This document shows, piece by piece, positions 1 to 48,427 of a DNA stretch of 59,826 nucleotides (within the stretch, counting starts at the first letter, position 1; each line of letters begins with the position of its first letter). A model generated the notes under the pieces. That model was given only the letters and a program-made list of their open reading frames with translations, was not told the DNA's origin and did no database searches. The DNA is taken from contig JAPDKB010000016.1 of assembly GCA_029258795.1 (NCBI GenBank), positions 1 through 59,826 of the forward strand. Direction: 5' to 3'. Origin of the DNA: an archaeon (GTDB lineage: Archaea > EX4484-52 > WAPT01). The translations under genes and the position numbers were made by a program.

Positions 1-393
1 ATGGCAGAGGTGCTCAAAATACTGAAGGAGTATGTTGGCCCTACAGGAGGGGGAATACTGTACAACATAGGAGTGGAAGCTGGAAAGGAATATTTCAAGG
101 CACATCATGTGGAAGGAGAAAGCATGGAGGACACGATAGGAAAGTTCTTCGGATTTCTTATGTATTCTGGCTATTCCAAAATAACGTTCGATGGTGAGAA
201 AATTATAGTTCCTTCATCACCAACAGCGGACATGTGGAGCAGGAACATAGGAGAGAAAACAAAGACATGTTATTACCTCTCTGGCCTTTTTGCAGGGTTC
301 CTTTCAGAGCTGTTCAAAAAGCAACTTGATGTCAGAGAGGTTAAATGCATGGCCGCAGGCCATGACAGGTGTGAGTTCGAGATATTTGGATGA
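1..393 (+). CDS. V4R (vinyl 4 reductase)-domain small-ligand-binding protein, possibly 5'-truncated by the window edge
   Basis: Typical V4R motifs: LYNIGVEAG, CYYLSGLFAGFL and C-terminal EVKCMAAGHDRCEF. Confidence 0.85.
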   Translation: MAEVLKILKEYVGPTGGGILYNIGVEAGKEYFKAHHVEGESMEDTIGKFFGFLMYSGYSKITFDGEKIIVPSSPTADMWSRNIGEKTKTCYYLSGLFAGFLSELFKKQLDVREVKCMAAGHDRCEFEIFG

Positions 394-407
394 AAAGATT
401 TATATAA
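392..407 (+). promoter_or_regulatory. Putative archaeal BRE/TATA promoter of the KaiC-GTPase fusion gene
   Basis: Purine-rich GAAAAGA followed by TTTATATA about 55 nt upstream of ATG 461; GGTGA RBS just before the start. Confidence 0.5.
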
Positions 408-460
408 AACTGAATTCCCATAATATAAGAGTAGAAGATGCTCAGAGAGGGTGATGTGAG

Positions 461-1603
461 ATGAAAATAACCACGAGCATACCAAAACTGGACGAAATAC
501 TAGAGGGTGGGCTTCCAGTACATGCGAATGTTCTTCTGTTTGCTGACCCGCTTGCGGATGCTGCGACATTCGCTCAGCAGATCCTATCCCACAGAATAGA
601 TGAGGAAGATGTAGGTATATACCTCGTAACCAACAAGCTTCCGAAAGATGTTGAGAACAACATGTACAAACACGGATTCAACACCAATGGTATAGTGTTT
701 ATAGATGGTCTCTCCTACACTTTGAAAAGAAAGAGTGACTCAAAATACGTGATAGACGAAGTAATTACAAGCGGTAAGCCTGCATGGGAGAGAGCAAAGG
801 AACTGTGGATGAAAGCCATCCAGGAAGAGAAAGGGCAGAAATTAGCGGTGTGGGATTGTTTGGAGACGTTCATGGGTTTTGTGGACGAAATAATAGATTT
901 TGTAAATGAGGTTAAGAAGTTGAATGAAGAAAACAAAACAACCTCACTATTCATACTGACGAATTGGGGTTACGATCCCAAAGATATAGAAAGAATAAAG
1001 GAGGCTTTCGATTTGGTGATAGACCTTGCTACAGTCTCCAAGAAACTGATGTACCTTAACTATTACAAAGTCAATCATAAACCAGCAATACCATTCAAAA
1101 TAACTTTAACCGGAGTCACACTTTATATACCAAAGATTCTCATCACCGGTCCATACAACGCAGGAAAATCCACACTTGTTAAACAGCTGTCCGAAACTGC
1201 GGTCAGCATAGACAGGCTCGGTACAACAATAGCGTTGGACCACGGATATGTGGAGAAGAAGGGATTTGCATGTAACATATTCGGTACACCGGGTCAGGAG
1301 AGATTCGACTGGATAATGGAAGTGTTGTCAAAGGATGTGTGGGGTGTGATATTAATAGTGGATTCCACAAAACCGGAATCATTCCCGCGAGCGCTTGAAA
1401 TGCTTGAAAAAGTGAAATCTGAGAACATACCGTTCATAGTGTTTGCTAATAAACAGGACGTGGAGGGAGCGTTGCCTCCTGAAGAAGTGAAGGAAAGATT
1501 GGGTGTGCCGATTGTTGTTGGTGGATCAGCAAAAACAGGAGAGAATACTGAAAAAGCTTTGTTAACACTGTTTGAAGAAATACTGAAAAGAAGGGTGTTT
1601 TAA
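461..1603 (+). CDS. Fusion of an inactivated KaiC/RAD55-like ATPase domain (N-term) and an MglA-family small GTPase (C-term)
   Basis: N-term TSIPKLDEILEGGLP (KaiC/RAD55 start), but Walker A reads ADPLADAAT. C-term G1 GPYNAGKST, G2 TTIALDHG, G3 GTPGQERF, G4 NKQD, G5 SAK. Confidence 0.85.
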   Translation: MKITTSIPKLDEILEGGLPVHANVLLFADPLADAATFAQQILSHRIDEEDVGIYLVTNKLPKDVENNMYKHGFNTNGIVFIDGLSYTLKRKSDSKYVIDEVITSGKPAWERAKELWMKAIQEEKGQKLAVWDCLETFMGFVDEIIDFVNEVKKLNEENKTTSLFILTNWGYDPKDIERIKEAFDLVIDLATVSKKLMYLNYYKVNHKPAIPFKITLTGVTLYIPKILITGPYNAGKSTLVKQLSETAVSIDRLGTTIALDHGYVEKKGFACNIFGTPGQERFDWIMEVLSKDVWGVILIVDSTKPESFPRALEMLEKVKSENIPFIVFANKQDVEGALPPEEVKERLGVPIVVGGSAKTGENTEKALLTLFEEILKRRVF

Positions 1604-1611
1604 ACACCCTT
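1591..1611. repeat. Perfect 10-bp inverted repeat AAGGGTGTTT-T-AAACACCCTT
   Basis: Read directly; overlaps the stop of 461..1603 and lies 20 nt upstream of a TTTATATA box at 1631. Confidence 0.7.
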
Positions 1612-1696
1612 TCAACAGCATTCCATAAACTTTATATAGTAAAAAACCCAAAATGAAATCCGGTTATGATAAAAAAGTTAAGGAGGGTGTGGAAAG

Positions 1697-2071
1697 ATGC
1701 CTAAAGAAGAGGAACTTAAGGAAGCTGTCGGAGATCTGAAAAATGTTTCCGGAGTAGTTGGAAATGCAGTGGTTACACCAGATGGTCTGCTGATATTCTC
1801 AGACTTGCCGGACACCGTGAACAAGAGAGCACTGGCTGCGATGGCAGCAGCTATAGTGGGTACAGGAATGCAGGTTACCAAGGAATTGAACATCGGGACA
1901 CTGAGCCAAGTGATGGTAGAAGCGCAGGAAGGTAAGTTCATATCCATTAGCGTTGGTACGGATGCCGACTCACCCATCCTGTCAACGCTGGTTGAACCAA
2001 AAGCAAACCTTGGTCTCGTGCTTCTGGAGATGGAAAAAGCAGCCAAAAAAATCCAGAAAATCATGGCGTGA
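1697..2071 (+). CDS. Roadblock/LC7-domain protein (MglB-like GTPase partner)
   Basis: 124 aa; GVVGNAVVTPDGL, LAAMAAAIVG and ANLGLVLLEM are roadblock signatures; adjacent to an MglA-like GTPase. Confidence 0.9.
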   Translation: MPKEEELKEAVGDLKNVSGVVGNAVVTPDGLLIFSDLPDTVNKRALAAMAAAIVGTGMQVTKELNIGTLSQVMVEAQEGKFISISVGTDADSPILSTLVEPKANLGLVLLEMEKAAKKIQKIMA

Positions 2072-2738
2072 TTTCTATCCCTTTTTCACTTATTTTGAAG
2101 TTGAGATTTACTGGTAGTGTTTTGGTTTCTTTCATTCTATTTATTTTGATTGTTCTCTTATCACCTTCCATAGAGAAGTAAATCGTACCGTCGGTAAGGC
2201 TGTTAAGAGCAGTTATTACATCAGGCGTGTGCATTCCCTCTTCCACAGTTATCAACTCTGTTATGCCCACACCTTTTAGACGAGCTGAGAGCATCGATAT
2301 AAACCTGAGACACAGGTCCTTGGGGACGAATAGAAACATGGTGGATATGGAATCTACAACAACTCTCCTAACATTCTGATTTTTCATCTCCGTAAGCGCT
2401 TTCGTTATGGCTATCGTGAAATTGGTAAGATTAGCAGGATTCACAACATCCTTCCCTTCTTCCTTACCCATCTGCCATGAGTAAGCATCTATAAAGCGTA
2501 ATGGCTTGCCTGAAACATCCCATCCAAAAGATTTCATGTTATTGATTACCTCATCAGGGGCTGCATTGAGAGTTATGTAAATCGCTCCTTCTCCATTTTT
2601 AAGACCTTCATATATGAACTGGTTACAGAATGTTGTTTTACCCGCACCAGGAATACCTATCAATAAAATGGATGCTCTCTCGGGTAATCCTCCTTCCAGA
2701 GCTTCATCGAATTTAGGGATGCCTGTTGGTACTCTCAT
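2061..2738 (-). CDS. KaiC/RAD55-family ATPase (single domain, intact)
   Basis: PTGIPKFDEALEGGLP, Walker A GIPGAGKTT, Walker B VVVDSIS. Confidence 0.9.
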   Translation of the reverse strand: MRVPTGIPKFDEALEGGLPERASILLIGIPGAGKTTFCNQFIYEGLKNGEGAIYITLNAAPDEVINNMKSFGWDVSGKPLRFIDAYSWQMGKEEGKDVVNPANLTNFTIAITKALTEMKNQNVRRVVVDSISTMFLFVPKDLCLRFISMLSARLKGVGITELITVEEGMHTPDVITALNSLTDGTIYFSMEGDKRTIKINRMKETKTLPVNLNFKISEKGIEITP

Positions 2739-2835
2739 AACACCACCTTGCTGAGTTAATGTGTGCTTGGTTATTTTTATGCAGTATTATGTTTATTAAT
2801 TTAGTGAGTTATATAAAAATTGTGGGTGGTGTTTG

Positions 2836-4083
2836 ATGAGTAAGATTGCGGTGATTAGTTTTGTCTGCGAGTCCATGATTCCGCTCGTTGAAATGATGGC
2901 AACAAGAATTGTGGCAAGTGGTCATGAGATTGTGGACGAAAACAGAGCTGAAGTGGTTGTAATTGCTAGTTGTGCGCTGAGCGCATCCATAAAAAGAAAA
3001 TGCATTAAGAGGGCGCAACTAGCATCCAGTAGTGGAAAAAGGGTGTTAATGATTGGCTGTCTTCCGGAAATATATGAAAAGGAGTTGCTCTCTTCCGTTC
3101 CTAACGCGAGCGTGGCAGGCGTGACCTCTTATCTGAAGATTGGAGAAATCATTAAGAAGATGCTTGAAGGTTATAGGGTAAGGAGGTTTGATGACCCACC
3201 AAGAATTCCCGTTGGTGGTGGGTGGAACAGGATAAATCCGTTGGTGGCATACATCCCCATAAGTGAGGGTTGTTCATGGAACTGCTCTTTCTGCATGTGC
3301 AGGATAGCGAGAGGCTCACTCATATCTTATCCTCCCGAAAAGATTGTGTCTTCCATTATAAACGCTGTTGAGAACTCCGCAAAAGAAATCGTGCTGGTGG
3401 GTGATGATGTTGGTGCTTATGGGCGTGATGCAGGAATGACTTTACCTTCCCTTCTCAGAAAAGTGCTGACCATAAAAGGGGATTTTAAGGTAAAGCTAAG
3501 CTACATCAATCCAGCAAGCTTGCTGAATTGTTTCGATGACCTGCTTTCCTGCTTGACCCATCCGAAAATGTACAGGTTTTTGCATCTCAACATTCAGAGC
3601 GCATCTAACCGCGTGCTTTCTGCAATGAAAAGAAAGTATAGCGCTGAAAATGTTGCGGAAATGGTGGAGAAGTTGAGATCCTCTTTCAATGGATTCACCA
3701 TCCTCATGGACGTTATGGTCGGGCATCCTGCAGAGAAGGATGAAGATTTTGAGGAGACCGTGTCCTTTTTGAATGATGTCAAGCCCGACTCCATTAACGT
3801 TCATACGTATTCTCCAGTAAAACCTGATGAGGAAGTCATTCCTTCGTGGAAGGTAAAGCAGAGGTATGAAGAACTGCTCTCTCTCAAGAAAAAACTCGAG
3901 CAAGAAAGCTCCAAGAAATGGATCGGGTGGAGTGGAGAAGTTACGGTGGTGCAAGTTTCTAACGGCATGTCCCTCGGAAGAAACTATGCCTATCGTGATG
4001 TGCTTATTAAAAGAAAACTCGAGCCCGGAACGAAAACGAACGTGGAGGTGAGAGATTTCCGTGAGTTTTTACTGCTTACCTGA
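2836..4083 (+). CDS. MiaB/MtaB-like radical SAM methylthiotransferase (divergent)
   Basis: Three N-terminal UPF0004-type Cys (FVCES, IASCA, IGCLP), radical SAM CxxxCxxC (EGCSWNCSFC), TRAM-like C-term GRNYAYR. Confidence 0.8.
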   Translation: MSKIAVISFVCESMIPLVEMMATRIVASGHEIVDENRAEVVVIASCALSASIKRKCIKRAQLASSSGKRVLMIGCLPEIYEKELLSSVPNASVAGVTSYLKIGEIIKKMLEGYRVRRFDDPPRIPVGGGWNRINPLVAYIPISEGCSWNCSFCMCRIARGSLISYPPEKIVSSIINAVENSAKEIVLVGDDVGAYGRDAGMTLPSLLRKVLTIKGDFKVKLSYINPASLLNCFDDLLSCLTHPKMYRFLHLNIQSASNRVLSAMKRKYSAENVAEMVEKLRSSFNGFTILMDVMVGHPAEKDEDFEETVSFLNDVKPDSINVHTYSPVKPDEEVIPSWKVKQRYEELLSLKKKLEQESSKKWIGWSGEVTVVQVSNGMSLGRNYAYRDVLIKRKLEPGTKTNVEVRDFREFLLLT

Positions 4084-5937
4084 CAGTGCTTTTTTTATGA
4101 TCTCCACAGCATCCTTGCCGTCTATCCTGCCAGCGTAGACCTTCATCACCTCACCCATTATCATCTTGAAGCTTGCCTTTTCCCCATGCTTCTTTATCAG
4201 CTCTTTGACTAGATTCTCAACTTCGGATTTGTTAGCTTTCCGCAGATTCTTTTCCTTCACCACCAACTCTGGCTTTTTACCCTCTTCTACGCACGCCTTA
4301 AGAATTATCGGTATGGCATCTCGTGATATGACACCTTCATCTAAAAGGTGGAGCACGCTCAAGATGGTTCTGTCATCAAGCTTATCTATATCCACATTCT
4401 CCCTGCTTTTGAGATCAGGAATGGTGTTGACAAGCGTTACTGCTACCACTTTCGGAGGGACGTGCTTAAGCTTCACTACCGCCTCCTCGAAAATGAGATA
4501 ATAATCAGAGTTTATGAGCTGTGTTGCCAGCTCCTTTCCTATGCCAAGAGAAAGGTACTTCTCCATTTTTTCTTCAGGAGTTTCTGGAAGATTGGCTCTC
4601 GTTTCCTCTATCATATCCTCGATTATGAATATCGGTGGCACATCAGTTTCGGGGTACATTCTGGCCGAGCCGGGCAACGGACGCATATACTGTGTGTCAC
4701 CATTCTCAAGCGCTCTCCTTGTCTCTTCAGGAACTCCCTCTGCCAGCATCTCCACCCTTTCTCTCACAACCTCAAGCGCTTTCTCTGCTTCCTCCCTTTC
4801 GTCTTCCTTTTCAAACAACACCATCACCACCAAATCCTTTGGTGATGCTTTGCAATTTTTCCTGAGCGCTTCAACCTCTCCTTCACTGATTCCATAACGG
4901 CTGAGGTCTTCATCGGTGTGAATTATACCCTTCATTTTTGTTTTAGCTCTCACGTAGTCTGCTACCTCTCTCCCAAGAGTTCTGAAATCATTGAGCTTTC
5001 TGGAAAACATTCCTGAAAAGTTGTTTATGGTTATGGCAAGGGCTTTCTTGTTTTTAAGCAACCTGCTGCGCGTATCTTTAAACACCTCACCAACATCAAA
5101 AATTCTGGAGACCTTCGGCTTCTTACCCTTTAACTCGTTTTTTATCTCAACCAGCGATTTCTGCCTCTTCACTTCATTTTCCACAAGCTTCTCCATCACG
5201 CTTAAGTCCTGAGCTCCTTTTATCTCGACTCTCGCTCCCTCCTTTATCGAGATGTTTATGTCCTGTCTTATACTACCTATCCCTCTCATCACCTTACCCG
5301 TAAACCTCAAAAGCTCGCCCAGCTTTCTTGCGGCGTCCACAACTTTTTCGGGGGAATTAAGGACCGGTTCCGTCGCTATCTCCACAAGCGGAATGCCCAA
5401 CCTGTTCAGCCCGTAAGCAACATAATCATCTCCCCTCTCAATTATCTGCGCACTCTCTTCCTCCAAGCAAATGGTTGGTATGGGCACATCTCCAAACGAG
5501 CATTTGAGCTTGCCATCAAGCCCTATTATGGCTGTCCTCTGAAATCCCGTCGTGTTTGAACCATCTATAACTATCTTCCTCATAAAATGGACTTCATCAA
5601 CTATTTTTGCATTGAGAAGAAGCGCTATCTCAACCACTATTTTTAGTGCTTCCTCATTCACCTCGTGTGGGGGTTCTTCATCCATCTCCACAAGACATGT
5701 ACTCTTCTTATATGTTCTGTAAATGTATTTCCTCCCTTTCATGTGTTCATGCAGTGCTGCAGGGTCGATTTCTCCGAGCTCGCTCTTGCTCAGCCTCAAA
5801 TACCTGTGAAAAGTTGAGGTGTGTTCATCTTCAAGAAGAGAATCACAATTGCAAAAAAGCTTGTGCGTTTTCAACCTCCTGTGGATTTCTATACCGCACT
5901 TGAGCCCGAGTTTTTTGTAATCCAGCACTTCTCCCAT
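4069..5937 (-). CDS. gatE: Glutamyl-tRNA(Gln) amidotransferase subunit E
   Basis: GLKCGIEIH, KLFCNC, RKIVIDGSNTTGFQRT, RLGIPLVEIAT, RPLPGSARMYPETD. Confidence 0.97.
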   Translation of the reverse strand: MGEVLDYKKLGLKCGIEIHRRLKTHKLFCNCDSLLEDEHTSTFHRYLRLSKSELGEIDPAALHEHMKGRKYIYRTYKKSTCLVEMDEEPPHEVNEEALKIVVEIALLLNAKIVDEVHFMRKIVIDGSNTTGFQRTAIIGLDGKLKCSFGDVPIPTICLEEESAQIIERGDDYVAYGLNRLGIPLVEIATEPVLNSPEKVVDAARKLGELLRFTGKVMRGIGSIRQDINISIKEGARVEIKGAQDLSVMEKLVENEVKRQKSLVEIKNELKGKKPKVSRIFDVGEVFKDTRSRLLKNKKALAITINNFSGMFSRKLNDFRTLGREVADYVRAKTKMKGIIHTDEDLSRYGISEGEVEALRKNCKASPKDLVVMVLFEKEDEREEAEKALEVVRERVEMLAEGVPEETRRALENGDTQYMRPLPGSARMYPETDVPPIFIIEDMIEETRANLPETPEEKMEKYLSLGIGKELATQLINSDYYLIFEEAVVKLKHVPPKVVAVTLVNTIPDLKSRENVDIDKLDDRTILSVLHLLDEGVISRDAIPIILKACVEEGKKPELVVKEKNLRKANKSEVENLVKELIKKHGEKASFKMIMGEVMKVYAGRIDGKDAVEIIKKALSGKQ

Positions 5938-5963
5938 GATATTTCACACCCTTGGTATGCTTT

Positions 5964-6536
5964 TCAACTTACGTTATGAACAAGCATCTCCAGAAATCCT
6001 TTAGAGGCTTCAAACGATTCTTTTGCCCTCTCCTTGCTCACCTCGAAGAAGAGGGAGGCGTAAGCTTTGTTGATGAATTTGGATGCTGCCCTTATTATAT
6101 CTCCACTATCTTTGTAAGTTGGCAGTTTAGAGGCAATTATTATGAATTTGACCAGCCCCTGAGGAGAACATCTCTCAATGTTTTCTGCATCACTCACCAC
6201 TTTTTCCTCATTCGTTTTTGGCTCTCCCTCTCTTTCCCACACCCGAAAATCATGCTTCCTTATCGTATTCATTATCGCGATTCTCTTGTCACTCGGAATT
6301 CCAAGCTCCTTAAGTATCTTATCAGCTGCAATTGCACTCTCCTCGGCGTGGCTGACAACGTTCTTTCCATCAAAGGCAATGTCGTGTAAAAGCGACGCTA
6401 TTCTCACTATATTTTTGTTGACCTCGACGCGCTCAGCTATGTGCTCAGCATTCTCCATAACTCGTAAAGCGTGCGGATACCCGAAAAGGATGTCATGTCC
6501 CAATCTCGCCTTAACGATGCGATGAAGCTCTTCCAT
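5964..6536 (-). CDS. HD-domain phosphohydrolase
   Basis: H...LLHDIA...H...H...DAE HD-superfamily pattern; start taken at ATG 6536. Confidence 0.8.
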   Translation of the reverse strand: MEELHRIVKARLGHDILFGYPHALRVMENAEHIAERVEVNKNIVRIASLLHDIAFDGKNVVSHAEESAIAADKILKELGIPSDKRIAIMNTIRKHDFRVWEREGEPKTNEEKVVSDAENIERCSPQGLVKFIIIASKLPTYKDSGDIIRAASKFINKAYASLFFEVSKERAKESFEASKGFLEMLVHNVS

Positions 6537-6590
6537 AATAGCTAATGCGAGAAGGAACATTTTAAAGATTTGTCACGACAAACTTAGAAC

Positions 6591-7937
6591 ATGTATGCTA
6601 AAGAAATAATCGAAGTTCTGAAAAAAGCGGGGGCATCTGAAGGAGATTTCATCAGAGTAATGCTCAGAGATGGCTGTGTTCGTGAAGGAATTCTCATGCC
6701 CCGTTCCGAGTTCGGAAACGAAAAATGTCTGGTCATCAAGTTAAAGAATGGTTATAACATAGGGATTTCTGCCAAAAAAATAAAGAGTGTGGAAGTTATC
6801 GAAAAAAGAAAAAAGAAAGATACCATACCACAAAGAAAACCATCAAAGACAAAAGGAGGGAAAAAGCCAAAAGTTGTTATCCTGCACACAGGAGGGACGA
6901 TAGCTTCGAGAGTGGATTACGAAACGGGTGGTGTTAAAGCCCTATTTTCTCCTGAAGAGCTGCTTGACCTATTTCCTGAGATGGAAAAGTATGCGTTGAT
7001 CGATTCAAAACTTATAGCCAACGCTCTCAGCGAGAACCTGCGTTTTGGACATTACAACAAGATGATAGATGCCATTGAGAAGGAAATAAAAAAAGGTGTG
7101 GATGGCATCATACTGACTCACGGGACTGATACTATGGCTTACACCGCTGCAGCCATTGCGTTTGCTTTTGAAAACCTACCCGTTCCCGTGATTTTGGTTG
7201 GGGCGCAGCGCAGCTCCGATAGACCGAGCAGCGATGCTGCCATGAACCTCATCTCGGCTTTGCAGTTCATAACCACCACTGATTTTTGCGATGTAGGTAT
7301 ATGCATGCACGCAACAACAAGCGATGACTACTGCCACATACTGCCAGCTTGCAAAACAAGAAAGATGCACACATCAGCAAGATACGCTTTTCAAGCAATA
7401 AACGCTAAGCCATATGCTAAAGTGTGGTGGAAGGAGGAGAGGGTGGAATTCTTACAGGACGATTATGTTAGGAAGAGTGATGTGAAGGGCAAGCTCGTGG
7501 TCAGAAAGTTCAGGGAAGATATTAAGGTGGGATTGCTGAAGGCACACCCCCACCTCATGCCGGAGGAGGTGCTTGCTTACCAGGGTTTTGATGGAATGGT
7601 GATAGAGGGTACAGGGCTGGGACATATTGGAATAGAGTCCTTTGATGAGTTAAGCAAGGAGAATGAGGAGGTCATGAAAGCTCTGAAAAAGGTGATCGAA
7701 AGCGGAACCATCGTTGTTATGACCTCTCAATGTCTTTATGGCAGGGTGAACATGAACGTGTACAGCACGGGAAGAAAGCTGCTGAAGATGGGCGTGCTTG
7801 GCAATCTCACGGACATGCTCCCGGAGGTTGCCTTTGTGAAGCTCGCCTGGCTCCTCAGCAACTTCAAAAAGGATGAAATTCCGAAGCTCTGGCACACGAA
7901 TCTTCGGGGAGAAATCTCTGACAGGACGTTAGAGTGA
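6591..7937 (+). CDS. gatD: Glutamyl-tRNA(Gln) amidotransferase subunit D
   Basis: KLKNGYNIG N-domain, TGGTIASRVDYETG, HGTDT, GAQRSSDRPSSD. Confidence 0.97.
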   Translation: MYAKEIIEVLKKAGASEGDFIRVMLRDGCVREGILMPRSEFGNEKCLVIKLKNGYNIGISAKKIKSVEVIEKRKKKDTIPQRKPSKTKGGKKPKVVILHTGGTIASRVDYETGGVKALFSPEELLDLFPEMEKYALIDSKLIANALSENLRFGHYNKMIDAIEKEIKKGVDGIILTHGTDTMAYTAAAIAFAFENLPVPVILVGAQRSSDRPSSDAAMNLISALQFITTTDFCDVGICMHATTSDDYCHILPACKTRKMHTSARYAFQAINAKPYAKVWWKEERVEFLQDDYVRKSDVKGKLVVRKFREDIKVGLLKAHPHLMPEEVLAYQGFDGMVIEGTGLGHIGIESFDELSKENEEVMKALKKVIESGTIVVMTSQCLYGRVNMNVYSTGRKLLKMGVLGNLTDMLPEVAFVKLAWLLSNFKKDEIPKLWHTNLRGEISDRTLE

Positions 7938-7942
7938 TGAAT

Positions 7943-9361
7943 TCAGGACAGCGCTTCATCAACATACTTTTTGTATGCTGTGTAAAGAGCTTGTTTTGAT
8001 ACGCCAGTGTCCACATTTTCAAAGCCAAATCTGTGGCTCAAATCCTTCTCCTCGAGATATGAGTCCAGCACGATTCCCTCTTTACTTGCCACCTTCTTCC
8101 AAGCTGAATAGTTCATACCGTATTTGTGGGCTTTCAATAAAAGTTCACCTATCTTTTCATCACCAATACTGAGAATTGCCTGCAAATGAGCCCGTTTGGG
8201 GTTTGTTAGGTGTACCATAACACCCATTTTTCTCAAACTTCTCGCTATCGTCATGTTCTTTCGAGAAAGAGATTCGATTTCATCGACGGGGGCAAATTGG
8301 AACGGTGTGTGTGGCTTGGGCACAAAAATGGAGAATGTGCATTTAATATAGATTCCTTTTATTGATGTGCAGTCCTTCACCAGCTTAACCACATCGCGTA
8401 TATCCTCCTCTCTTTCGTAAGGAATACCTACCATAAAATACAGCTTAACAGTTCTAACTCCATTTTTCTTTGCCATCTTTACAGCTTGTAACACATCATC
8501 ATCGCTAAAATTCTTTCCCACAAGGTTTCTCAACCGCTCGGTGGTTTCTGGCGCGATGGTCAGAATTCTCGGCTTCACTTCCTTCAAAAAATCGCGAAAC
8601 TCAAGCACATCCCTAACATGGAAGGATGGGGTTGCTACATCGAACTTGCGGGAGCGCAAATAACGATATATCTCTGGGAGTTCTGGGTGAGAGAAGATAT
8701 CTGAGCCCACAAGCATTATCTTTCTATACCTGTTTTTGGGCACTCTGCTCATTATTAACTTGACATTATCCAGAGTTCTGTAACGGCATGTACCTCTCGT
8801 CCAACCGATCAGGCAGAATTTACACTTGTTCCTGCATCCTCTCTGCACCTCCAGAAAGAACTCCTCATCACTTCCGCTTTCTGCAGGGTGTCTATCTCCC
8901 AACAACTTGCACAGCGCGACTTTTACTTTTTCTTTTCCCTTTTTCCACACATGCTCTGATCTCTCTATCACCTGCTCAACACCGTAATTTTTCATCTCAT
9001 CGAAAAAAATTTCGCCATCTCCAATGAAAAACGCGTCGATAATGGAGGAAAGTGGGGCAGGATTCACCACCACAGGCCCGCCCATGATGATAAAGGGCTG
9101 TTTTTCGTTGTTTTCAGTGCTCTTCCCCAACGAAAAACCTGCTTTCTCCAGAATTTCAATGAGGTGGAGGTAATCATTTTCATAGTGACAGCTTATCAGT
9201 ATCATATCGTGCTTTTTTAATTCGGAAAGCTCGGTTGAATCGAGAAAATAGAACCTGCTCCTTAATCCCATCCTCATGAGTTCATCTCTCAGAAAGTAGA
9301 TGGAAAGTGCTTTTTCTCCCACCTTTCTTCTGTTAGGATAAATTATGGCTACATTTTCCAT
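7943..9361 (-). CDS. Radical SAM protein (B12-binding-like N-domain, COG1032-type)
   Basis: EVQRGCRNKCKFC, TIAPET, KLYFMVGIP, FVPKPHTPFQ. Confidence 0.85.
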   Translation of the reverse strand: MENVAIIYPNRRKVGEKALSIYFLRDELMRMGLRSRFYFLDSTELSELKKHDMILISCHYENDYLHLIEILEKAGFSLGKSTENNEKQPFIIMGGPVVVNPAPLSSIIDAFFIGDGEIFFDEMKNYGVEQVIERSEHVWKKGKEKVKVALCKLLGDRHPAESGSDEEFFLEVQRGCRNKCKFCLIGWTRGTCRYRTLDNVKLIMSRVPKNRYRKIMLVGSDIFSHPELPEIYRYLRSRKFDVATPSFHVRDVLEFRDFLKEVKPRILTIAPETTERLRNLVGKNFSDDDVLQAVKMAKKNGVRTVKLYFMVGIPYEREEDIRDVVKLVKDCTSIKGIYIKCTFSIFVPKPHTPFQFAPVDEIESLSRKNMTIARSLRKMGVMVHLTNPKRAHLQAILSIGDEKIGELLLKAHKYGMNYSAWKKVASKEGIVLDSYLEEKDLSHRFGFENVDTGVSKQALYTAYKKYVDEALS

Positions 9362-9389
9362 TCCATACCATTTAGCTGCTAAATTTTAA

Positions 9390-10097
9390 TTACTCCACTT
9401 CCTTTGTTTCAACTATGAGAAAATCCGCGTAGCTCGGCAGCGTTATAACTAGCTCTAACTCCGTGCCATTAACAACCAGATGTGCCACAGCTCTTCCTCT
9501 CGGCAACCCCCTCCCATACATCTCAGCATAAACATAACCCGTGCCATTTTCATAAACATCGTTTATCCTCATTCTAACCGTGCCATCAAAAAACGTGTTC
9601 TCCTTTACCAGGTACACACCCTGAATAATCTGGCTGAGATTTATCTCCTGCCAGTTGGTTTTAGTGCCGACCTTCGAGATGTTTACTTCAAGATACGAGT
9701 TCCTCATCGTTATAACATTACCGTTATCAATAACATCAACATCATCACCCTCAGCTATTATTAAATCCCCTTCTCTTATCATGGTGCTTCTCGCGACTAT
9801 GGGTGCTTCCGTCTTCATTCTGAACTCTATCGTGTTGGACTCGTTGTCTACAATGAGAACTCCTCTCCTAACATTCACACTTACCAATCTTGTGGAGCCC
9901 CTACCTTCGGCAACAACTTCTTTTAGAGCGGAGTTTAAGTTGCTCATCATCTGCTTTGCATTTTCAAACGCTGCTTTGTCACGCAACTTTTGAAAGAATG
10001 GTGTTGCCATCGTGAGAACTAGCGCTATAACGAATACTGCGATAGCCACATAAAGCGTGCTTGCAAGCAAAGGAGATACCGCCTTTCTTTTGCCCAT
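9390..10097 (-). CDS. Archaeal type IV prepilin-like protein
   Basis: Class III signal peptide MGKRKA|VSPLLASTLYVAIAVFVIALVL. Confidence 0.75.
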   Translation of the reverse strand: MGKRKAVSPLLASTLYVAIAVFVIALVLTMATPFFQKLRDKAAFENAKQMMSNLNSALKEVVAEGRGSTRLVSVNVRRGVLIVDNESNTIEFRMKTEAPIVARSTMIREGDLIIAEGDDVDVIDNGNVITMRNSYLEVNISKVGTKTNWQEINLSQIIQGVYLVKENTFFDGTVRMRINDVYENGTGYVYAEMYGRGLPRGRAVAHLVVNGTELELVITLPSYADFLIVETKEVE

Positions 10098-10131
10098 TAA
10101 TGTATTTTCTTGTGAGCAACTATATATATGT

Positions 10132-10716
10132 TCAGCAGGTTTCGAGGTTCGATGTTCTTATAATCATCACGTTCCCTTCCTCATCCTCCACCACTGCTAT
10201 CGCTGCCGAGCTGAAGCCGGAGGGGGCTGAAGTCCTGAAGCAAAAATCATTTTCACCAGCATAAATTCTCAGAGTGATTTGATCTAACTCCTGTGCGCTG
10301 CTGACTGTAATGTTGCGCATGCTGAGAGGAGCAACCAGCACGGGAGGATAGCTGTTCGTTTCAGTAATTAATTTGAAAGTTGCATAATTATTTGCACCGT
10401 TGAAAAAATGCGCCACCCCCTGAAAATCCTGCTTCTCAACAACGATGATGAATGTTGATTCTCTCATCCCCCGCTCAATGAAGTAGGAGTGGAGTTCAGC
10501 ATGCATCGAGATTGATTTTTTGAGCAGGTCACTCTTATTTTCACAAGTTAGGAGAGACGAAGCTGCTGCATCCATGTAAGCTCCCATCACCTCCTTGAAG
10601 GGCTTGCTCATCATTTTTTGATATGGTGCTGAACTTATCCTAGGAATGGAGAGAATCGATGCTACACTCAATATTATGAGCATAGCTCCAACCAACAGCC
10701 ATTGTCCTTTTCTCAT
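10132..10716 (-). CDS. Prepilin-like protein (KG|Q class III signal)
   Basis: MRKG|QWLLVGAMLIILSVASIL; ATGA overlap with the upstream gene. Confidence 0.7.
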   Translation of the reverse strand: MRKGQWLLVGAMLIILSVASILSIPRISSAPYQKMMSKPFKEVMGAYMDAAASSLLTCENKSDLLKKSISMHAELHSYFIERGMRESTFIIVVEKQDFQGVAHFFNGANNYATFKLITETNSYPPVLVAPLSMRNITVSSAQELDQITLRIYAGENDFCFRTSAPSGFSSAAIAVVEDEEGNVMIIRTSNLETC

Positions 10717-11336
10717 GAAACCACCAATTCCATTTCACCCATAACATTAGGATTAACCTCGTACGGCACAAATATCCTTACCACATTTTCTTCTTTGGTG
10801 AGGACTTCGTGATACGCTTCGCTGGCATACTCTCTTTCTGTTCTGAGTATGGCCCATGTAGGATTGTCACACGTAACTTTAATGGATGCAAGCCCGCTTG
10901 TCTCGTTTGAAAGATCCACCACAGCAATATCGGAAAAAGTGAATGAAATGGTGGAACTTGCGCTCACCTCACATGTTGTACTGGAAGGGTTCAGGAGAAT
11001 CAAGATTATCTTGTCGTGGTTTTCCATTATGTCCAGTGTTGCCGTTGTGTTAGCAAGCTCCACACCCTCCTTCACATAAGTCACTCTTATGCCTGTTTTG
11101 AGGGGTGCCAGATTGTCGTTCATCCAGTTAGATACGGCATCGATATCTCCCTCCAAAAAATGGGCATCCATCACACCGGACCTAAACAGAGTTGTCAGGG
11201 CTGTGCTCGCCCTTTCGAATTTTATCATGTTCTCATCACTGGGAGCGATAGGTGTGGCTGTGAAAATCCATGTTATAAAACCCACCATCATAACAAAAGC
11301 AATTGCGCTTTCAACGATGTTGACATACGCTTTCAT
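10713..11336 (-). CDS. Prepilin-like protein
   Basis: MKA|YVNIVESAIAFVMMVGFITWIF: short basic leader, Glu near +5/+6, hydrophobic helix. Confidence 0.6.
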   Translation of the reverse strand: MKAYVNIVESAIAFVMMVGFITWIFTATPIAPSDENMIKFERASTALTTLFRSGVMDAHFLEGDIDAVSNWMNDNLAPLKTGIRVTYVKEGVELANTTATLDIMENHDKIILILLNPSSTTCEVSASSTISFTFSDIAVVDLSNETSGLASIKVTCDNPTWAILRTEREYASEAYHEVLTKEENVVRIFVPYEVNPNVMGEMELVVS

Positions 11337-11342
11337 GACGAA

Positions 11343-12551
11343 TCACTTCCACAAGCTCAGTGTGCATGTTGTAACTTTCATACTTCCGTTCTTGTAAAGT
11401 AAAGTAATTGGAAATCTTCTTACCCACACGTTGGTGTGGCGTGGAATGCTCCTCCCAAATGAGTAGTTCGCTACAGTAATGTTGAAATGATACCCTGTAA
11501 TGCCCAAATTCTGGGTTAATTGTTCGTAGCTCATCTCGCTCAACATCTCGAGTTCTTCTACCGGCACAACAGTTAGGTGAATCGGTGCGTTCATTTTCAG
11601 TTCGTTGAGAGTGAAAAGTTCTTTCTCGCAGATAGCGCATGTGTAATCAGTAGGACATAGGAAAATCTCTAATTTTTTGATGTCTTGGAACGATACTTTA
11701 ATCTGAGTTGGAGAAACACGCATCGACACCTTCATGTTTTTTCCTATGAATGATACAGCCACACCACCGCCGTACAGCGATAGAATATCCGTGGTAAGTT
11801 CTGCATTCAGTCCGTTTGAAAGAGTATGGGTGGTGGTGCCATCAAAATATTCTGTAAATATATTCCTGAGTGTGAAAGTATAGTTGTTGGGGGTTGTGGA
11901 TTTGATCCATAATCTGGGTGAGTATGCATCCAATTCAATGCTCACGTTTCCAAAATCCACGTAACCATAACCACACCTATCTTCTTCTTTTTCTATCGAT
12001 GTTGTGGGTAAGGATGTGGGAACTGCTAGCAGTTCCTCACCATTGTAAACAATGGAGTTTATGGATGTTGGTGTGTACTGCACGACCACTTTGCTGTTTT
12101 CCAGCGTGCCGGAATGAACATCAATATCTGAGACGCATGTGTAATTGGAAATGCGGTTGGAAATTATGCACACAAGCGGAATTGTTGTGTTCATGGAAAC
12201 TTCCAGCCGGGAAATTGAAGAACGATAATAAGCTGGGACAAGTTGAGCGTTCTGGAAGCATACAATCGTGCTATCATTTTTGACATCAAAATACGTTCGA
12301 TAATAGGAGGCATTACACAAACTTCCACGAAATTGGAATGACGACACATCATTTCCAAGACCAGAAATGGTGTTCATCATCATCAATGAAACCTTATCTG
12401 GGCTAATCGTGGTGGAATAAGTTTCCAAGAAGTGTGTTTCGCTCAGCTTTATAGTTAGAATCACGCTGCTCATGAATATTATAAAAGCGACAGCCCATTC
12501 CAAGTGTGTGGATGCCGTTCTATATTTTTTACTCTTTCCAAATGACCTCAC
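11343..12551 (-). CDS. Large prepilin-like/adhesin protein
   Basis: Basic leader ...KKYRTA|STHLEWAVAFIIFM with Glu at +5; beta-rich, Ser/Thr/Asn-rich body. Confidence 0.6.
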   Translation of the reverse strand: MRSFGKSKKYRTASTHLEWAVAFIIFMSSVILTIKLSETHFLETYSTTISPDKVSLMMMNTISGLGNDVSSFQFRGSLCNASYYRTYFDVKNDSTIVCFQNAQLVPAYYRSSISRLEVSMNTTIPLVCIISNRISNYTCVSDIDVHSGTLENSKVVVQYTPTSINSIVYNGEELLAVPTSLPTTSIEKEEDRCGYGYVDFGNVSIELDAYSPRLWIKSTTPNNYTFTLRNIFTEYFDGTTTHTLSNGLNAELTTDILSLYGGGVAVSFIGKNMKVSMRVSPTQIKVSFQDIKKLEIFLCPTDYTCAICEKELFTLNELKMNAPIHLTVVPVEELEMLSEMSYEQLTQNLGITGYHFNITVANYSFGRSIPRHTNVWVRRFPITLLYKNGSMKVTTCTLSLWK

Positions 12552-13066
12552 AGAAGATCTACCTCCACCTTACTAACTCCATCAACAACTCCTTCGTTTC
12601 TGAAAAGTATCGTGCTTGTGCCATAAGCCACATACCATTTTTTGGTGAAAGAACAGTCATCACACCCCACCAATATTCGGATTATTTTCTCTTCCTCAAC
12701 TGAATACCCCACAGTTACTCGTCCGTAATCTTCATAAGTCCCAGAAAAAATCAAACCCGCACGCTCGATTATTTCAGCGTCCCTTTTCGTGAAAAACACG
12801 TATGTTTTTGATGGAATGGTGGCTGCTGTGGTTATCATATCGCTTTTATTGAGCCATACCGTTCCATAATTGTTAAAGCTGAGCATCCCCACAGTATAGC
12901 TATTCGTTCTTCCGAAAACCAGGGGAATGTGCTGGTCCGCATAACTTTCCGTGTATGCATCACCAATTTCGATGGTAAGAGTCATGGCAAAAACACTATG
13001 CTGTATTAAGATAAGTGTGATTAGTACCCATACCATTAATATAAAAAAATTCAATGATTTGGCCAT
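12548..13066 (-). CDS. Secreted/membrane hypothetical protein, first gene of the pilin-like operon
   Basis: Start reassigned to ATG 13066 (MAKSLNFFILMVWVLITLILIQHSVFA signal-like); ATGA overlap with the next gene. Confidence 0.6.
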   Translation of the reverse strand: MAKSLNFFILMVWVLITLILIQHSVFAMTLTIEIGDAYTESYADQHIPLVFGRTNSYTVGMLSFNNYGTVWLNKSDMITTAATIPSKTYVFFTKRDAEIIERAGLIFSGTYEDYGRVTVGYSVEEEKIIRILVGCDDCSFTKKWYVAYGTSTILFRNEGVVDGVSKVEVDLL

Positions 13067-13127
13067 GAATTTAAAACGGTTATTGAACAATAAAAAAATG
13101 TCTTTTTGGATGGAAAGGGTGAGTGTT

Positions 13128-44070: not shown

Positions 44071-44111
44071 GTGATATACAATTGAAAAAATTTTAATTCA
44101 TTAGTGCTTAT

Positions 44112-44309: not shown

Positions 44310-44443
44310 GACACCTCCAGCTAATCTTTGGATATACACAAGTGCCAAAAGGTTATTTACAAGAACTATGAAGGAAATTAGAAATATAAGATTAAATTTG
44401 TAGGTATTGAAAAAGATGTTTTTCGAAAAGGAGATGATGTGAG

Positions 44444-47400
44444 ATGGATATGAATAAAAAATTATTGAAAAAGAAAGAAGAGGAGAAAATGGATGAAATC
44501 GAAATTAAGAAAGAAAAACTAGCCAAAAAGGAAAAGCCGATTGGTGTTGAAGAGGCACGAAAATTAGAAGAATTGAAAAAAGAAGTATCAAAGCCATCTA
44601 TTATAATCAGAGAAGAAGAGGAAGAACTCACAGAAGAAGAAAAGAAAGTGTTAGTGATTCTCGAAATGGTTAGTAAGAATAAGAACGGGTTAAGAGTTAC
44701 AGGATTTCAAATAAAAGATTTTTTGGAATTAATATTTCCAGAAATCGATATAGATAAAGTCTATTCCCAATTGAAAGAAAAAAATTTAGTTTCTCAGCGA
44801 AAAGATTCAGAGGAGTTTTGGTTAACTTATAAAGGGGAAGAAATAGCTAAAAAATGTGAAGAACTTAAACGACCAATTTTGGAAAAAGTAAGCCATCTTT
44901 TAGAAAGTGTTCTAGAGAAAAATGAGTTGCTAAAAAGAATGTTGTATCTTTCCTATTTAGATGAATGGAAATTTAAGGCATACTATCTTCCGAAGATTAA
45001 AGACAATCTCACAGAAAAACATCAAGTTCTTTGTACATTTATCTGCGACGAAGAGTTTTTACAATTACCTTCCGTGGAGAAATTGGTTAGAAAAGTAAGA
45101 AAAGAAGAACCACCATTACTTGAAAAAGAACTAGAAAACCTTTGTGAGGATAGCGACTTTCTAAGAGCTCTCCTTATCTTGAAACTTAATGAGTTAAAAG
45201 ATAAACTTGGTTTGGGTATAGACTCTTCTTTATATTATGGAAATTATGTAGAGGGTCTTACTAAATTTATGGAAAAATCAAAAGTAAACGAGATCATTAG
45301 TAGGTTTTTAATGTTAGGTATAATCGATTCTGAAAATTTGTTTAATCTGAACGTAGAAAAGGTTCTTCTTCGTAATGATAATCTTCAAAAAATTAAAGAA
45401 ATGTTAAGTTTTGACGAGAATGAGTTAGAAAAAGAAATAAAATGCAACTGGTACCTGTTCGTAGATTTAAAAAGGATGTTAGATGGTTATACTCCTTCTA
45501 ACCTTGAAAAATTCATAAAAATGAATGCTGTTCTTCTTTCTAAGGATAGAATATTAGTGAGATCTGAATTAAGAAAGATTTATGATAAAATTGTCAATTA
45601 TATTGAAACTAAACTCAAAGAAAAAATTGGTGATATTTCTAATGTTGTAATTCTTCTGTTTTACGATAGGGACAGAATTAAGAAATTAGAAGGAAAAATA
45701 GTAATCATTTTAGAAGGAGATATTGATGATGAACATATCTTGGAAAAAAACGTTATTTTGAAAGTATCTCCTAAAGAAATTGGTATGGAAACTACTAGAA
45801 AGATAAATGAAGAATACAATGCTATCGGAAAAATAGAAAATTTGGACAATGTGAAGGATAGATTTAATTTATGTGAATGGGTTAAGGTTGAGGATAATTA
45901 TTACGTAAAGAAAGCTAAAGAGATTATCGAAGATAAGAAGACTCCTAAAATTTCCTTTAATGAGTTCATGGAGGAGATAAAAAAAGATCCCAAACTTTCT
46001 TTTATGTTGTTTATCGCTTCTACAAAGTACACTTCTCGAAGTGGCATGAGATACTATTCCGAAGATATTCTCTGGTCTGATGTTTGGATAAATATGAAAA
46101 GGATCTTCCCAAATATTACGGAAAAAGAATTTTCAGAATTAAAAAATAAACTGTTAGAACTCGCTAAAAGGGCTAGGGTGAATATTGTATTGTTTGATGA
46201 AAAAGAAAAAGTATATGAGAAGTGTAAGAAAATTCTAACAGAGGAGATTCTAAAAAGAGTTGTGGATCTAGATGAAAATTCTAAAAAAATGTTATTCACA
46301 TTCTTAAAATTAATTTCATTAGAAGAAGATGATTACCCTTACAATTTTTTCTGGTATGTTGAGTGGGGCAGTTGGAAGAATAAATTTCCTATTCTTTATG
46401 AGTTTTTCTTTAAGGAAAAATACGAAGGTGATTTGGAAAGGTTATGGAGACTCATTAATAGTGTTGGACTTGGAATAGAAGCTACTTGGATTCATTCTCA
46501 TGGCCCGTGGAAAGGTAAGGAATTGCATAGGCGCGTTATTTATTTTTTCAAAGAAATTAAAGAAGAAATAGAAAAAATTTTACAAGACGAAATAAAAACC
46601 ATAAAAATTGATATCTCATTATTCTCAGAGAGTATAAAAGAAAATATTATAGAGCTTATTGGATTAGATTTTATTCTTTCTAAAAATGGTTTCTGTAATA
46701 AGGAAGAATTAAGAGATTTTCTTTGGAATATATCTTTGAAAGCTTGGAAAGAGTTTGAGTCCTTTGAAGGAATAATCTCACCTAAAGATGAAGAAATAAT
46801 TGTGATCAACCCCTTAATAATAGAAGAAATCCAAAAGTTTGTAAAATTAAGGAAGAGAGAAATTATTGAAAAAACAAGTAAAGAACTTATAGAAATACTA
46901 AGGTCTTCCGAGGATTTTGGAATTGATATTACATTTGACAAAGAATTATCAATCTATAGAGGAATTATCAGAACAAAAGAAGGGGAGGAAATAACCTTAA
47001 TCATAGCTCCTTGGTATCTTCCACGATACGAAAACTTATTCGGAAGAAAAACACTATTGATAGTTACCTCTCAACCAGATTATGAACAATTAAAGAGAAT
47101 CATTAAAGAAAAAAATGATGAGATCGCCATTCTTTTCCTTCATAGGAAGGATGTTTACATCTATTCGTCTTTCGAAGACAATTCAATTATAAATCTAATT
47201 ATAAAAAACACGTCTCAATACGAGTATGAAATTAAAGAAAAAGAATTAGAATTTGAGGAAATAGAAAAGAAAGAAGAAACAATAGAAAAGGTTTTAATTT
47301 CGAAAACTAGAGAACTTAAAGCAGAAAGGGAAATTTTAGATGAGATTTTTCCTTCATTAGGTACAAAATGTTTCTCTTCTTTGTTTGATAGTAGCGGAAA

Positions 47401-48427
47401 ACCTAAATGTGTTATACTTATAGGGAAAGGTGATGGAAAAGATGTAATAGAGAGTCTTATGAAAAAAGAACTTGAATATTGGGGATATTCTACATTCCAT
47501 ACTAAGCAAATAGAATGTATTAAAAAGGATGAAAAAGAGGAAATAAAGACTTACGTAAACACAGAATTTATCGAAGATCCTGTAAAAGTGATTGAGTATA
47601 TAAGCAATCCTAAATACAGGATAGTAACAATAACCCTTTACCCAGAACTTTTGGAATTAATAGAGAAAATAGTCGAGAGGTTAAAAGAAGTTGAAACACA
47701 GGGGCTTAAATATATACTCTTCCATATACCTGTTGAAGGATTACCTAATGAAATAAAGGATAAAATTGAAAAAAGATCCTCAATCCCCATTTATATCATC
47801 AAACTCTTAGAAGGCGAATCTATTTGGGATGCCAAAAATAGGTTATTAAAGTTTTTTGGAGAAGGTATAACTACTAGAACCTTGTTAGAATTTGAAAGCT
47901 TAGATTCATGGTGGAATAAATTCCAGCAGGATCTACCAGACATCAGAGACAAACTCAGGGAAGAAATATCAAGAGATCCTGAGATAGACTTTCCACAATT
48001 GGATGAGGAAGATGATCTCCATTATTTGATGAAGGCAATAGTTTATAAATATCTAAAATTACGAGGTTATGAAGTGAGAATAGAAGAGCCTCAAACTATA
48101 GAGGAGAGAAAAATAAGGCCAGACCTTATCGCTTACAAGAAGGGAAAAGAAATTTATGTGGAAATAGAAACGGGATATCCAACTAAAGACGAGAAAGAAG
48201 AGTTTGGTGAGGTTATAAATCCTGAAAAGCGTCTTAAAAGTAGTAAAAAATTAGGAAAATATAAAAACAAAGATGTTATGTTGGTCGTTCCTAATGAATT
48301 TGGAATAATCCATAAAAGGAGATTTAAAAGTTGGAAAAATTACTTTAGGACCAAACATAATGTGAACCTTTCTATTTATGTTATTGACTGGTCCTCATAC
48401 CCGTGTAAGTTAATCAGGTTGGCTTAA
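44444..48427 (+). CDS. 1327-aa multidomain protein with a C-terminal PD-(D/E)xK-like nuclease domain
   Basis: C-term HYLMK...GYEVRIEE...RPDLIAYKKGKEIYVEIETG; N-term wHTH-like LKEKNLV...FWLTYKGEEIA; degenerate P-loop-like VILIGKGDGKD. Confidence 0.7.
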   Translation: MDMNKKLLKKKEEEKMDEIEIKKEKLAKKEKPIGVEEARKLEELKKEVSKPSIIIREEEEELTEEEKKVLVILEMVSKNKNGLRVTGFQIKDFLELIFPEIDIDKVYSQLKEKNLVSQRKDSEEFWLTYKGEEIAKKCEELKRPILEKVSHLLESVLEKNELLKRMLYLSYLDEWKFKAYYLPKIKDNLTEKHQVLCTFICDEEFLQLPSVEKLVRKVRKEEPPLLEKELENLCEDSDFLRALLILKLNELKDKLGLGIDSSLYYGNYVEGLTKFMEKSKVNEIISRFLMLGIIDSENLFNLNVEKVLLRNDNLQKIKEMLSFDENELEKEIKCNWYLFVDLKRMLDGYTPSNLEKFIKMNAVLLSKDRILVRSELRKIYDKIVNYIETKLKEKIGDISNVVILLFYDRDRIKKLEGKIVIILEGDIDDEHILEKNVILKVSPKEIGMETTRKINEEYNAIGKIENLDNVKDRFNLCEWVKVEDNYYVKKAKEIIEDKKTPKISFNEFMEEIKKDPKLSFMLFIASTKYTSRSGMRYYSEDILWSDVWINMKRIFPNITEKEFSELKNKLLELAKRARVNIVLFDEKEKVYEKCKKILTEEILKRVVDLDENSKKMLFTFLKLISLEEDDYPYNFFWYVEWGSWKNKFPILYEFFFKEKYEGDLERLWRLINSVGLGIEATWIHSHGPWKGKELHRRVIYFFKEIKEEIEKILQDEIKTIKIDISLFSESIKENIIELIGLDFILSKNGFCNKEELRDFLWNISLKAWKEFESFEGIISPKDEEIIVINPLIIEEIQKFVKLRKREIIEKTSKELIEILRSSEDFGIDITFDKELSIYRGIIRTKEGEEITLIIAPWYLPRYENLFGRKTLLIVTSQPDYEQLKRIIKEKNDEIAILFLHRKDVYIYSSFEDNSIINLIIKNTSQYEYEIKEKELEFEEIEKKEETIEKVLISKTRELKAEREILDEIFPSLGTKCFSSLFDSSGKPKCVILIGKGDGKDVIESLMKKELEYWGYSTFHTKQIECIKKDEKEEIKTYVNTEFIEDPVKVIEYISNPKYRIVTITLYPELLELIEKIVERLKEVETQGLKYILFHIPVEGLPNEIKDKIEKRSSIPIYIIKLLEGESIWDAKNRLLKFFGEGITTRTLLEFESLDSWWNKFQQDLPDIRDKLREEISRDPEIDFPQLDEEDDLHYLMKAIVYKYLKLRGYEVRIEEPQTIEERKIRPDLIAYKKGKEIYVEIETGYPTKDEKEEFGEVINPEKRLKSSKKLGKYKNKDVMLVVPNEFGIIHKRRFKSWKNYFRTKHNVNLSIYVIDWSSYPCKLIRLA

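Follow-up and report, generated by a model that had tools for sequence, protein, structure and literature searches.

Contig JAPDKB010000016.1 (contig C6 of assembly GCA_029258795.1, an archaeal genome of 1.17 Mb in 23 contigs) was analyzed from its first base over a stretch of 59,826 nucleotides (nt; hereafter, the window), the beginning of which encodes what we consider, with moderate confidence, to be a conserved archaeal switch module: a small GTPase fused to a dead KaiC-like domain, a Roadblock protein and, usually, a KaiC-like partner that is devoid of the glutamate (Glu) pair of KaiC. By conservation, the core of this module is a GTPase of the MglA group 2–5 type that is fused, linker-free, to the dead KaiC-like domain and has a Roadblock gene next to it. 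Ras-superfamily GTPases and their Roadblock regulators serve in bacterial polarity control and in eukaryotic Rag/Ragulator signalling, and KaiC-like ATPases, including inactivated “iKaiC” domains, were reportedly proposed as archaeal signalling hubs by Makarova, Galperin and Koonin in 2017; the module described here would physically join a GTPase/Roadblock switch and KaiC-like proteins across many archaeal phyla.

A preliminary description of the window, made from the letters and a list of open reading frames (ORFs) only, had outlined four genes at its start, and all four were found again in the ORF list at the coordinates noted then, with the Pfam scan naming the domain(s) of each. The fusion gene (461..1603, + strand, 380 amino acids (aa)) matches both Pfam KaiC and Arf/Ras, which bears out the proposed joining of a KaiC/RAD55 domain to a GTPase: its inactivated KaiC-like domain (461..1105, residues 1–215) matches KaiC (PF06745) at residues 4–193 with 38.6 bits (cut-off 26.6), and its small GTPase domain (1106..1603, core residues 224–380) matches Arf and Ras at residues 225–375 with 53.3 and 49.9 bits, respectively, as well as NCBIfam TIGR00231 (small_GTP) with 73.1 bits. 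It is followed by the gene of a Roadblock/LC7 (MglB-like) protein (1697..2071, + strand, 124 aa; Robl_LC7, PF03259, 45.2 bits, cut-off 23) and by that of the single-domain KaiC-like partner (2061..2738, − strand, 225 aa; Pfam KaiC, 143.8 bits), the latter two being convergent with an 11-nt tail-to-tail overlap (2061–2071), just as had been described. The fusion is not a chance ORF, as it has 606 matches in a 90%-clustered protein collection and relatives at 376 loci in species-representative genomes. Within its own genome, the fusion is the single MglA-like GTPase, and the Roadblock gene is also the single one of its kind (a Roadblock profile returned one match among the genome ORFs).

The N-terminal domain of the fusion belongs to the KaiC family, both by profile and by its PH0284-like fold, and appears to be catalytically dead, having neither a Walker A motif (GxxxxGK[ST]) nor the Glu pair: ADPLADAAT stands where the partner has GIPGAGKTT, and TNK occupies the position of the KaiC FEE, with the Asn at the first Glu position being common to the dead domain and the partner. 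Walker A is likewise missing in 16/16 fusion homologues of an alignment (hereafter, A1) and in 71 of 75 loci. The partner is the best KaiC-like match of the dead domain in the genome (33% identity over 145 aa, E 2e-19). An AlphaFold2 model of the fusion (predicted local distance difference test (pLDDT) 90.2, predicted template modelling score (pTM) 0.82) has one strand (residues 218–229) continuing from the KaiC-like domain into β1 of the GTPase, so no flexible linker is expected between the two domains. Foldseek gave PH0284 of Pyrococcus horikoshii (2dr3) as the best match of the dead domain (target-normalised template modelling (TM) score 0.76–0.81); the two-domain fusion model could be aligned with full KaiC over 412–454 columns, but with a root-mean-square deviation of 11–14 Å, which is too large to inform on how the domains are arranged. 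A search for longer fused forms in the range of 666–2000 aa, to which little weight should be given, returned none. A protein of 527 aa (P0163) that came up in the search among representatives combines a KaiC-like domain, a small GTPase and a Roadblock domain in one chain.

All of the GTPase motifs quoted in the preliminary description are present in the translation (G1 GPYNAGKST, G2 GTT, G3 GTPGQ, G4 NKQD and G5 SAK). T255, T256 and G275–Q279 are invariant in alignment A1 (the G2 G-T255-T256 in 16/16), and GTT and GTPGQ are each present in 69 of the 75 near-full-length fusions, the one in the window included. According to the survey by Wuichet and Sogaard-Andersen (2014; PMC4316618), group 1 MglA proteins have TVPGQ as their G3 motif and an intrinsic Arg adjoining the G2 Thr, whereas in groups 2–5 the position of this Arg is taken by a Thr and G3 is GTPGQ, and the MglB proteins coupled to the latter groups share an Asp-Gly pair. 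Such a pair (Asp29-Gly30) is invariant in 58/58 fusion-adjacent Roadblock proteins, and the GTPase can be placed, by its motifs and the coupled Asp-Gly Roadblock rather than by phylogeny, with the group 2–5 type of the MglA family. A bona fide group 1 MglA was ruled out by GTT (no Arg finger) and GTPGQ (not TVPGQ), and the label “MglA-type” given earlier is therefore apt for the wider family (groups 2–5) and not for the Myxococcus-type MglA. As the survey was limited to proteins of ≤240 aa (PMC4316618), the fused form fell outside its scope. By sequence, the nearest solved GTPases were Rab1 and Arl3 (E 6e-12 and up), and no MglA was among the best 60 of 555 solved-structure matches to the GTPase. 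The Roadblock protein is presumed to be the cognate regulator of the fusion GTPase.

Full-length relatives of the fusion are 34–89% identical to it and are labelled as Aenigmatarchaeota, Micrarchaeota and Altiarchaeota, with cluster representatives numbering 2092 at E≤1e-3, 365 at E≤1e-10 and 85 at E≤1e-30. The loci in species-representative genomes span Aenigmatarchaeota, Nanohaloarchaeota, Micrarchaeota, Altiarchaeota, Woesearchaeota, Undinarchaeota, Bathyarchaeia and Methanobacteriaceae (L071, L072 and L080). Neighbourhoods were counted at the best 80 of the 376 loci, of which 70 reach 600 bp or more downstream of the fusion and 45 extend 1.6 kb or more to either side (“well-flanked” below). 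In 61/70 loci, the fusion is followed within 1.4 kb by a Roadblock gene of the same strand, and in 55/70 this gene comes within 150 bp. Some KaiC-like gene is found no farther than 1.6 kb from the fusion in 32/45 well-flanked loci, the Glu-less type in 28 of them (several phyla, varying orientation) and the type with the Glu-Glu pair in 15; Altiarchaeota and several Nanohaloarchaeota loci have the fusion and the Roadblock gene only. By these gene-neighbourhood counts, the proposed grouping of fusion, Roadblock and KaiC-like genes does recur as a module in archaea. A literature search, which covered all but the likeliest source (Makarova et al. 2017), found no description of a KaiC-GTPase-Roadblock fusion module.

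On the role of the KaiC-like partner, our reading departs from the preliminary description, in which a ligand-sensing V4R protein, encoded upstream, feeds a KaiC ring that carries and times several GTPase domains. Taken as an active KaiC hexamer whose ATPase or phosphorylation cycle times the attached GTPases, this model is quite improbable. What speaks for it in the partner is the presence of both Walker motifs (A, GIPGAGKT; B, RVVVDS), so the “single-domain KaiC with intact motifs” stands as far as these two are concerned, but not for the Glu pair: in alignments to three solved KaiC sequences, L-N-A stands opposite their FEE, the position of the pair being taken by Asn58-Ala59. We take this pair, which follows the second strand, to be the catalytic glutamates of KaiC, and six other KaiC paralogs in the genome keep EE or EQ there (a Glu-Glu paralog is encoded at C7:45350–46036). 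The same split is seen among 74 KaiC-like ORFs near related fusions, of which 29 keep the Glu pair (all with intact Walker A and B) and 45 have lost it; of the latter, both Walker motifs are retained in 19, Walker A is degenerate in seven, Walker A has gone together with the Walker B Asp in 18, and the Asp alone has gone in one. An active KaiC that times GTPases is not supported by a partner that is Glu-less itself and 26/45 of whose relatives beside fusions are also short of Walker A, the Walker B Asp or both. In a maximum-likelihood tree of 93 rows, the Glu-Glu proteins (support 100/99) and the fusion N-terminal domains (100/100) each occupy one side of a branch. The partner appears to belong to a fusion-associated Glu-less group that seems to be decaying further in other lineages, and is probably a nucleotide-binding protein that is a poor or non-hydrolysing ATPase. 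Its AlphaFold2 model (pLDDT 94.9) has PH0284 as the best Foldseek match (TM 0.80–0.87), and it aligns to one KaiC half per alignment. The cyanobacterial KaiABC clock was also considered and was rejected, since it takes a two-domain KaiC (~500 aa) and the partner has 225 aa; no search was aimed at KaiA or KaiB.

The preliminary description also called for a model of the fusion with the KaiC paralog, and an interface between the KaiC-like domain of the fusion and this paralog is indeed predicted by a complex model of the two proteins, which scored 0.72 (runs 0.72, 0.76 and 0.00), with the best of three controls scoring 0.00; the score mark employed is reached by 116/157 solved complexes and 2/215 mismatched pairs, a calibration that is only approximate here (custom alignments). 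In this model, the pLDDT of the partner is at least 86, and the runs share at least 9% of contacts. The modelled interface is formed by fusion residues 28–198 (including the dead P-loop, 30–35, and positions 58–60 and 195–198) and partner residues 89–157, with no GTPase-domain residue and no P-loop residue of the partner listed in it. The partner would, thus modelled, probably dock on the dead KaiC-like domain of the fusion, and the predicted contact is of the protomer–protomer kind seen in RecA/KaiC rings.

Put together, the mechanism that we favour would have the Roadblock protein regulating the GTPase cycle, by analogy with MglB as a GTPase-activating protein (GAP), with the dead KaiC-like domain anchoring the GTPase on a RecA/KaiC-type oligomer that the fusion would share with the KaiC-like protein of the convergent gene. 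This protein, having kept its P-loop and lost its Glu pair, would be more likely to sense or bind ATP than to hydrolyse it, and the module would then be a nucleotide-dependent scaffold with a GTPase switch and not a KaiC clock. A pseudo-ATPase scaffold is preferred over a clock because the partner is of a Glu-less, decaying kind and is predicted to sit on the face of the dead P-loop.

Several points weigh against this interpretation and have to be kept in mind. In the tree, the Glu-less group comes out as one side of a branch with no more than moderate support (81/34, 86% of bootstrap trees), and the loss of the Glu pair is no proof that all ATP turnover is lost. The GAP role of Roadblock proteins is known only for group 1 MglA/MglB and not for groups 2–5 (PMC4316618). 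As the modelled contact resembles those between RecA/KaiC protomers, the success of the complex model may reflect likeness to solved KaiC/PH0284 hexamers; moreover, one of its three runs scored 0.00, and the agreement of contacts between runs is low. The fusion is found in only 3/28 genomes of its own phylum that are at least 80% complete, all of one genus (and in 3 among 41 genomes of relatives), so its role cannot be an essential one; a distribution as patchy as this points to transfer or to losses that occurred repeatedly. Lastly, 17/45 well-flanked loci have no Glu-less KaiC within 1.6 kb, and the partner is, hence, not universal. This last count also fits a different arrangement, namely two independent units, where the GTPase and the Roadblock protein act alone, the dead domain serves oligomerisation or stability, and the KaiC-like gene belongs to some other pathway. 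The partner is, after all, encoded on the opposite strand, KaiC neighbours are bound to be common in a genome with ~9–10 KaiC-family genes, and correlations of evolutionary distances with the fusion, being high throughout (Glu-less KaiC, r 0.87 over 41 loci; Glu-Glu KaiC, r 0.90 over 22; Roadblock, r 0.91 over 53), do not single out the partner. Such independence is nevertheless rather improbable in view of the 28 well-flanked loci that do have a Glu-less KaiC nearby, the status of the partner as the closest relative of the dead domain in the genome, and the fusion–partner complex model that passed its controls.

As for the V4R gene, the upstream input of the preliminary description, it is present (1..393, + strand, 130 codons; Pfam V4R, PF02830, residues 86–128, 62.6 bits, cut-off 31; the Cys-rich C-terminal V4R motif can be seen in the translation), but only as its 3′ part, the start of the contig cutting off its 5′ end. 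Window positions 1–61 are an exact reverse complement of positions 1–61 of another contig of the assembly, C5, and joining the two keeps the V4R frame open over 190 codons, so the complete gene probably has 179–190 codons with its start on C5. Window positions 1–393 are also 91% identical (nt) to C1:187578–187971, within a complete gene of 179 aa, and the window protein is 98% identical to that C1 paralog over 129 aa. On C1 (186078–189471, locus L002), the 179-aa gene is part of a second V4R pair together with a gene of 222 aa, the long genes of the two pairs being, by eye, more diverged. This suggests that the short V4R gene was recently duplicated or gene-converted, which probably also explains why the contig ends here.

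That the V4R gene lies 67 bp upstream of the fusion on the same strand favours its being the dedicated input of a timed KaiC hexamer, and the junction is real, since a single contig (record 10) of run X2, from another study, bridges 312–1323; in run X1, bases 1–370 are found in small variant-rich contigs and a contig of 13,392 letters covers 370–2800 with zero differences. The adjacency, however, appears to be young because, in two loci of the same genus (L004/L005, fusion 89–90% identical), synteny starts at base 450 and runs through the KaiC-like gene into those of the MiaB-like protein and GatE, and a gene of glycoside hydrolase family GH38 and an unnamed gene take the upstream place of the V4R gene, which tblastn did not find in either locus. 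Across archaea, where the other three genes of the proposed set recur together, a V4R gene is within 4 kb of the fusion in only 6/80 loci. Its one clear orthologue is in Aenigmatarchaeota (L015; 50% identity, full length), where, together with a longer V4R neighbour, it directly follows the Roadblock gene; more distant V4R genes near the fusion are those in L046, L064, L066, L082 and L050. Pfam scans of 150 of the 195 other neighbour ORFs gave V4R in L015 (twice), L046, L064 and L066, and also different sensor-type neighbours in other loci, namely Protoglobin, FIST and PAS; a hidden V4R domain was not detected by Pfam (E≤0.05) among 23 unnamed neighbour ORFs. The genome, furthermore, holds 12–13 V4R-domain ORFs (these, like the KaiC-family genes, being numerous for 1.17 Mb), and the near-identical C1 copy has no KaiC or GTPase neighbour. 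A dedicated V4R input is therefore not supported, and the gene seems to be an optional, lineage-specific neighbour of the module that would provide no more than one input among several interchangeable ones. A publication on V4R (PMC2253512) makes no mention of GTPase, Roadblock or KaiC.

Pili had been placed 7–10 kb downstream of the four genes, yet the five same-strand ORFs found there (9390–13312, − strand) do not bear this out: the first has a weak, sub-threshold match to DUF7289 (24.4 bits; cut-off 27), and the other four have zero Pfam matches. A pilus operon is instead found on contig C5 (locus L084, positions 1–13000), where, all on the − strand, there are genes for a T2SSE ATPase (7156–8847), a KaiC with the Glu pair (6344–7096), two T2SSF proteins (5271–6347 and 4352–5260), two small ORFs (3813–4355 and 3339–3809), a DUF2341 protein of 783 aa (972–3323) and two V4R proteins (225–899, 224 aa; 1–217, cut). 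C5, in reverse complement, probably abuts the start of the window, and, if it does, a complete type IV pilus-like operon and a V4R pair would lie directly upstream of the module in the same direction. Another KaiC is encoded at C5:11094–11816.

This context invites the idea of a pilus-motor adaptor, in which the dead KaiC-like domain and the Glu-less partner would act like ArlH, the KaiC-like archaellum protein that binds ArlI, and dock on a PilB/ArlI-type (T2SSE) ATPase, so that pilus assembly would be under GTPase control, an archaeal parallel to the way MglA controls pili. It draws support from the gene order that the C5 join would create and from four loci (L019–L022) in which a Glu-Glu KaiC and a T2SSE ATPase follow the module, the best match of that ATPase in our genome being the C5 copy (E 4e-187). 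We nonetheless find it unlikely, given that T2SSE adjoins the module in only these 4/80 loci, all of a single lineage, that the L004/L005 upstream region is occupied by the GH38 and unnamed genes, and that the join of C5 and C6, based on a 61-nt overlap, is unproven. The V4R pair and (if joined) the pilus operon are species-specific context, a candidate input and output that stand outside the conserved machine. A bolder and equally doubtful version of the scaffold would be a mixed RecA-type ring with alternating dead and ATP-binding sites, which displays several GTPases and docks on the pilus ATPase as ArlH does on ArlI, with a Ras-like GTPase and its Roadblock protein governing archaeal pili; if true, such a ring would amount to an archaeal version of the polarity control by MglA/MglB, built upon a scaffold of the KaiC type.

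Turning from these possibilities to the scaffold-and-switch reading that we prefer, and to how it relates to known systems, one close likeness is to MglA groups 2–5 with their MglB, which include archaeal group 4 and actinobacterial CvnD/CvnB (PMC4316618): shared are the GTPGQ, the Thr in place of the G2 Arg, the [NT]KxD form of G4 and the adjacent Asp-Gly Roadblock, whereas the GTPase of the window differs in its fusion with a dead KaiC-like domain and in having a KaiC-like partner. An actual conservon (CvnA–D) was rejected, as neither a histidine kinase nor DUF742 was found by Pfam scans of the window genes or of the 150 neighbour ORFs of related loci. With the MglA/MglB pairs of Myxococcus xanthus and Thermus thermophilus, the module has in common the small GTPase, the Roadblock-fold regulator and the possible link to type IV pili, but its GTPase has GTPGQ, not the TVPGQ of group 1, and is without the intrinsic Arg finger. 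Archaeal KaiC hubs are alike in the expansion of KaiC in a small genome and in the joining of a signalling domain to a KaiC-like one that is inactivated, and KaiC genes are on record beside pilus loci (PMC4858521). Structurally, PH0284 and the KaiC CI domain are the best matches of both the dead domain and the partner, and the six chains of the 2dr3 entry are in keeping with a fold that forms rings; unlike them, the dead domain has neither P-loop nor Glu pair, the Glu pair is also missing from the partner, and neither is a two-domain clock KaiC. Rag/Ragulator-LAMTOR would be similar in principle, as there, too, GTPases are regulated and scaffolded by Roadblock-fold proteins. In Rag GTPases, however, the Roadblock domain is their own C-terminal part, whereas here it is separate from the GTPase, and only P0163 has such a fusion.

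Beyond the module, the window continues with a gene for a MiaB-like radical SAM protein (2833–4083, + strand; UPF0004 and Radical_SAM), followed by those of GatE (4069–5937, − strand) and GatD (6591–7937, + strand), and the order of MiaB-like and then GatE is kept in the same-genus loci L004/L005. In two Aenigmatarchaeota loci (L007:8050–8538 and L014:8024–8533), the module is followed by an unnamed gene of ~170 aa and then by that of a formaldehyde-activating enzyme (Fae). Counts of promoter-like sites (5 vs. 6.9 ± 2.4 in shuffles) and terminator-like sites (3 vs. 2.0 ± 1.6 in shuffles) were obtained with patterns of the bacterial consensus and carry no information for an archaeal host. Farther downstream, window positions 44001–48000 stand out by a G+C content of 0.29–0.30 (vs. 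0.39–0.51 in the remaining window), and this stretch is occupied by a single ORF of 1327 aa (44444..48427, + strand).

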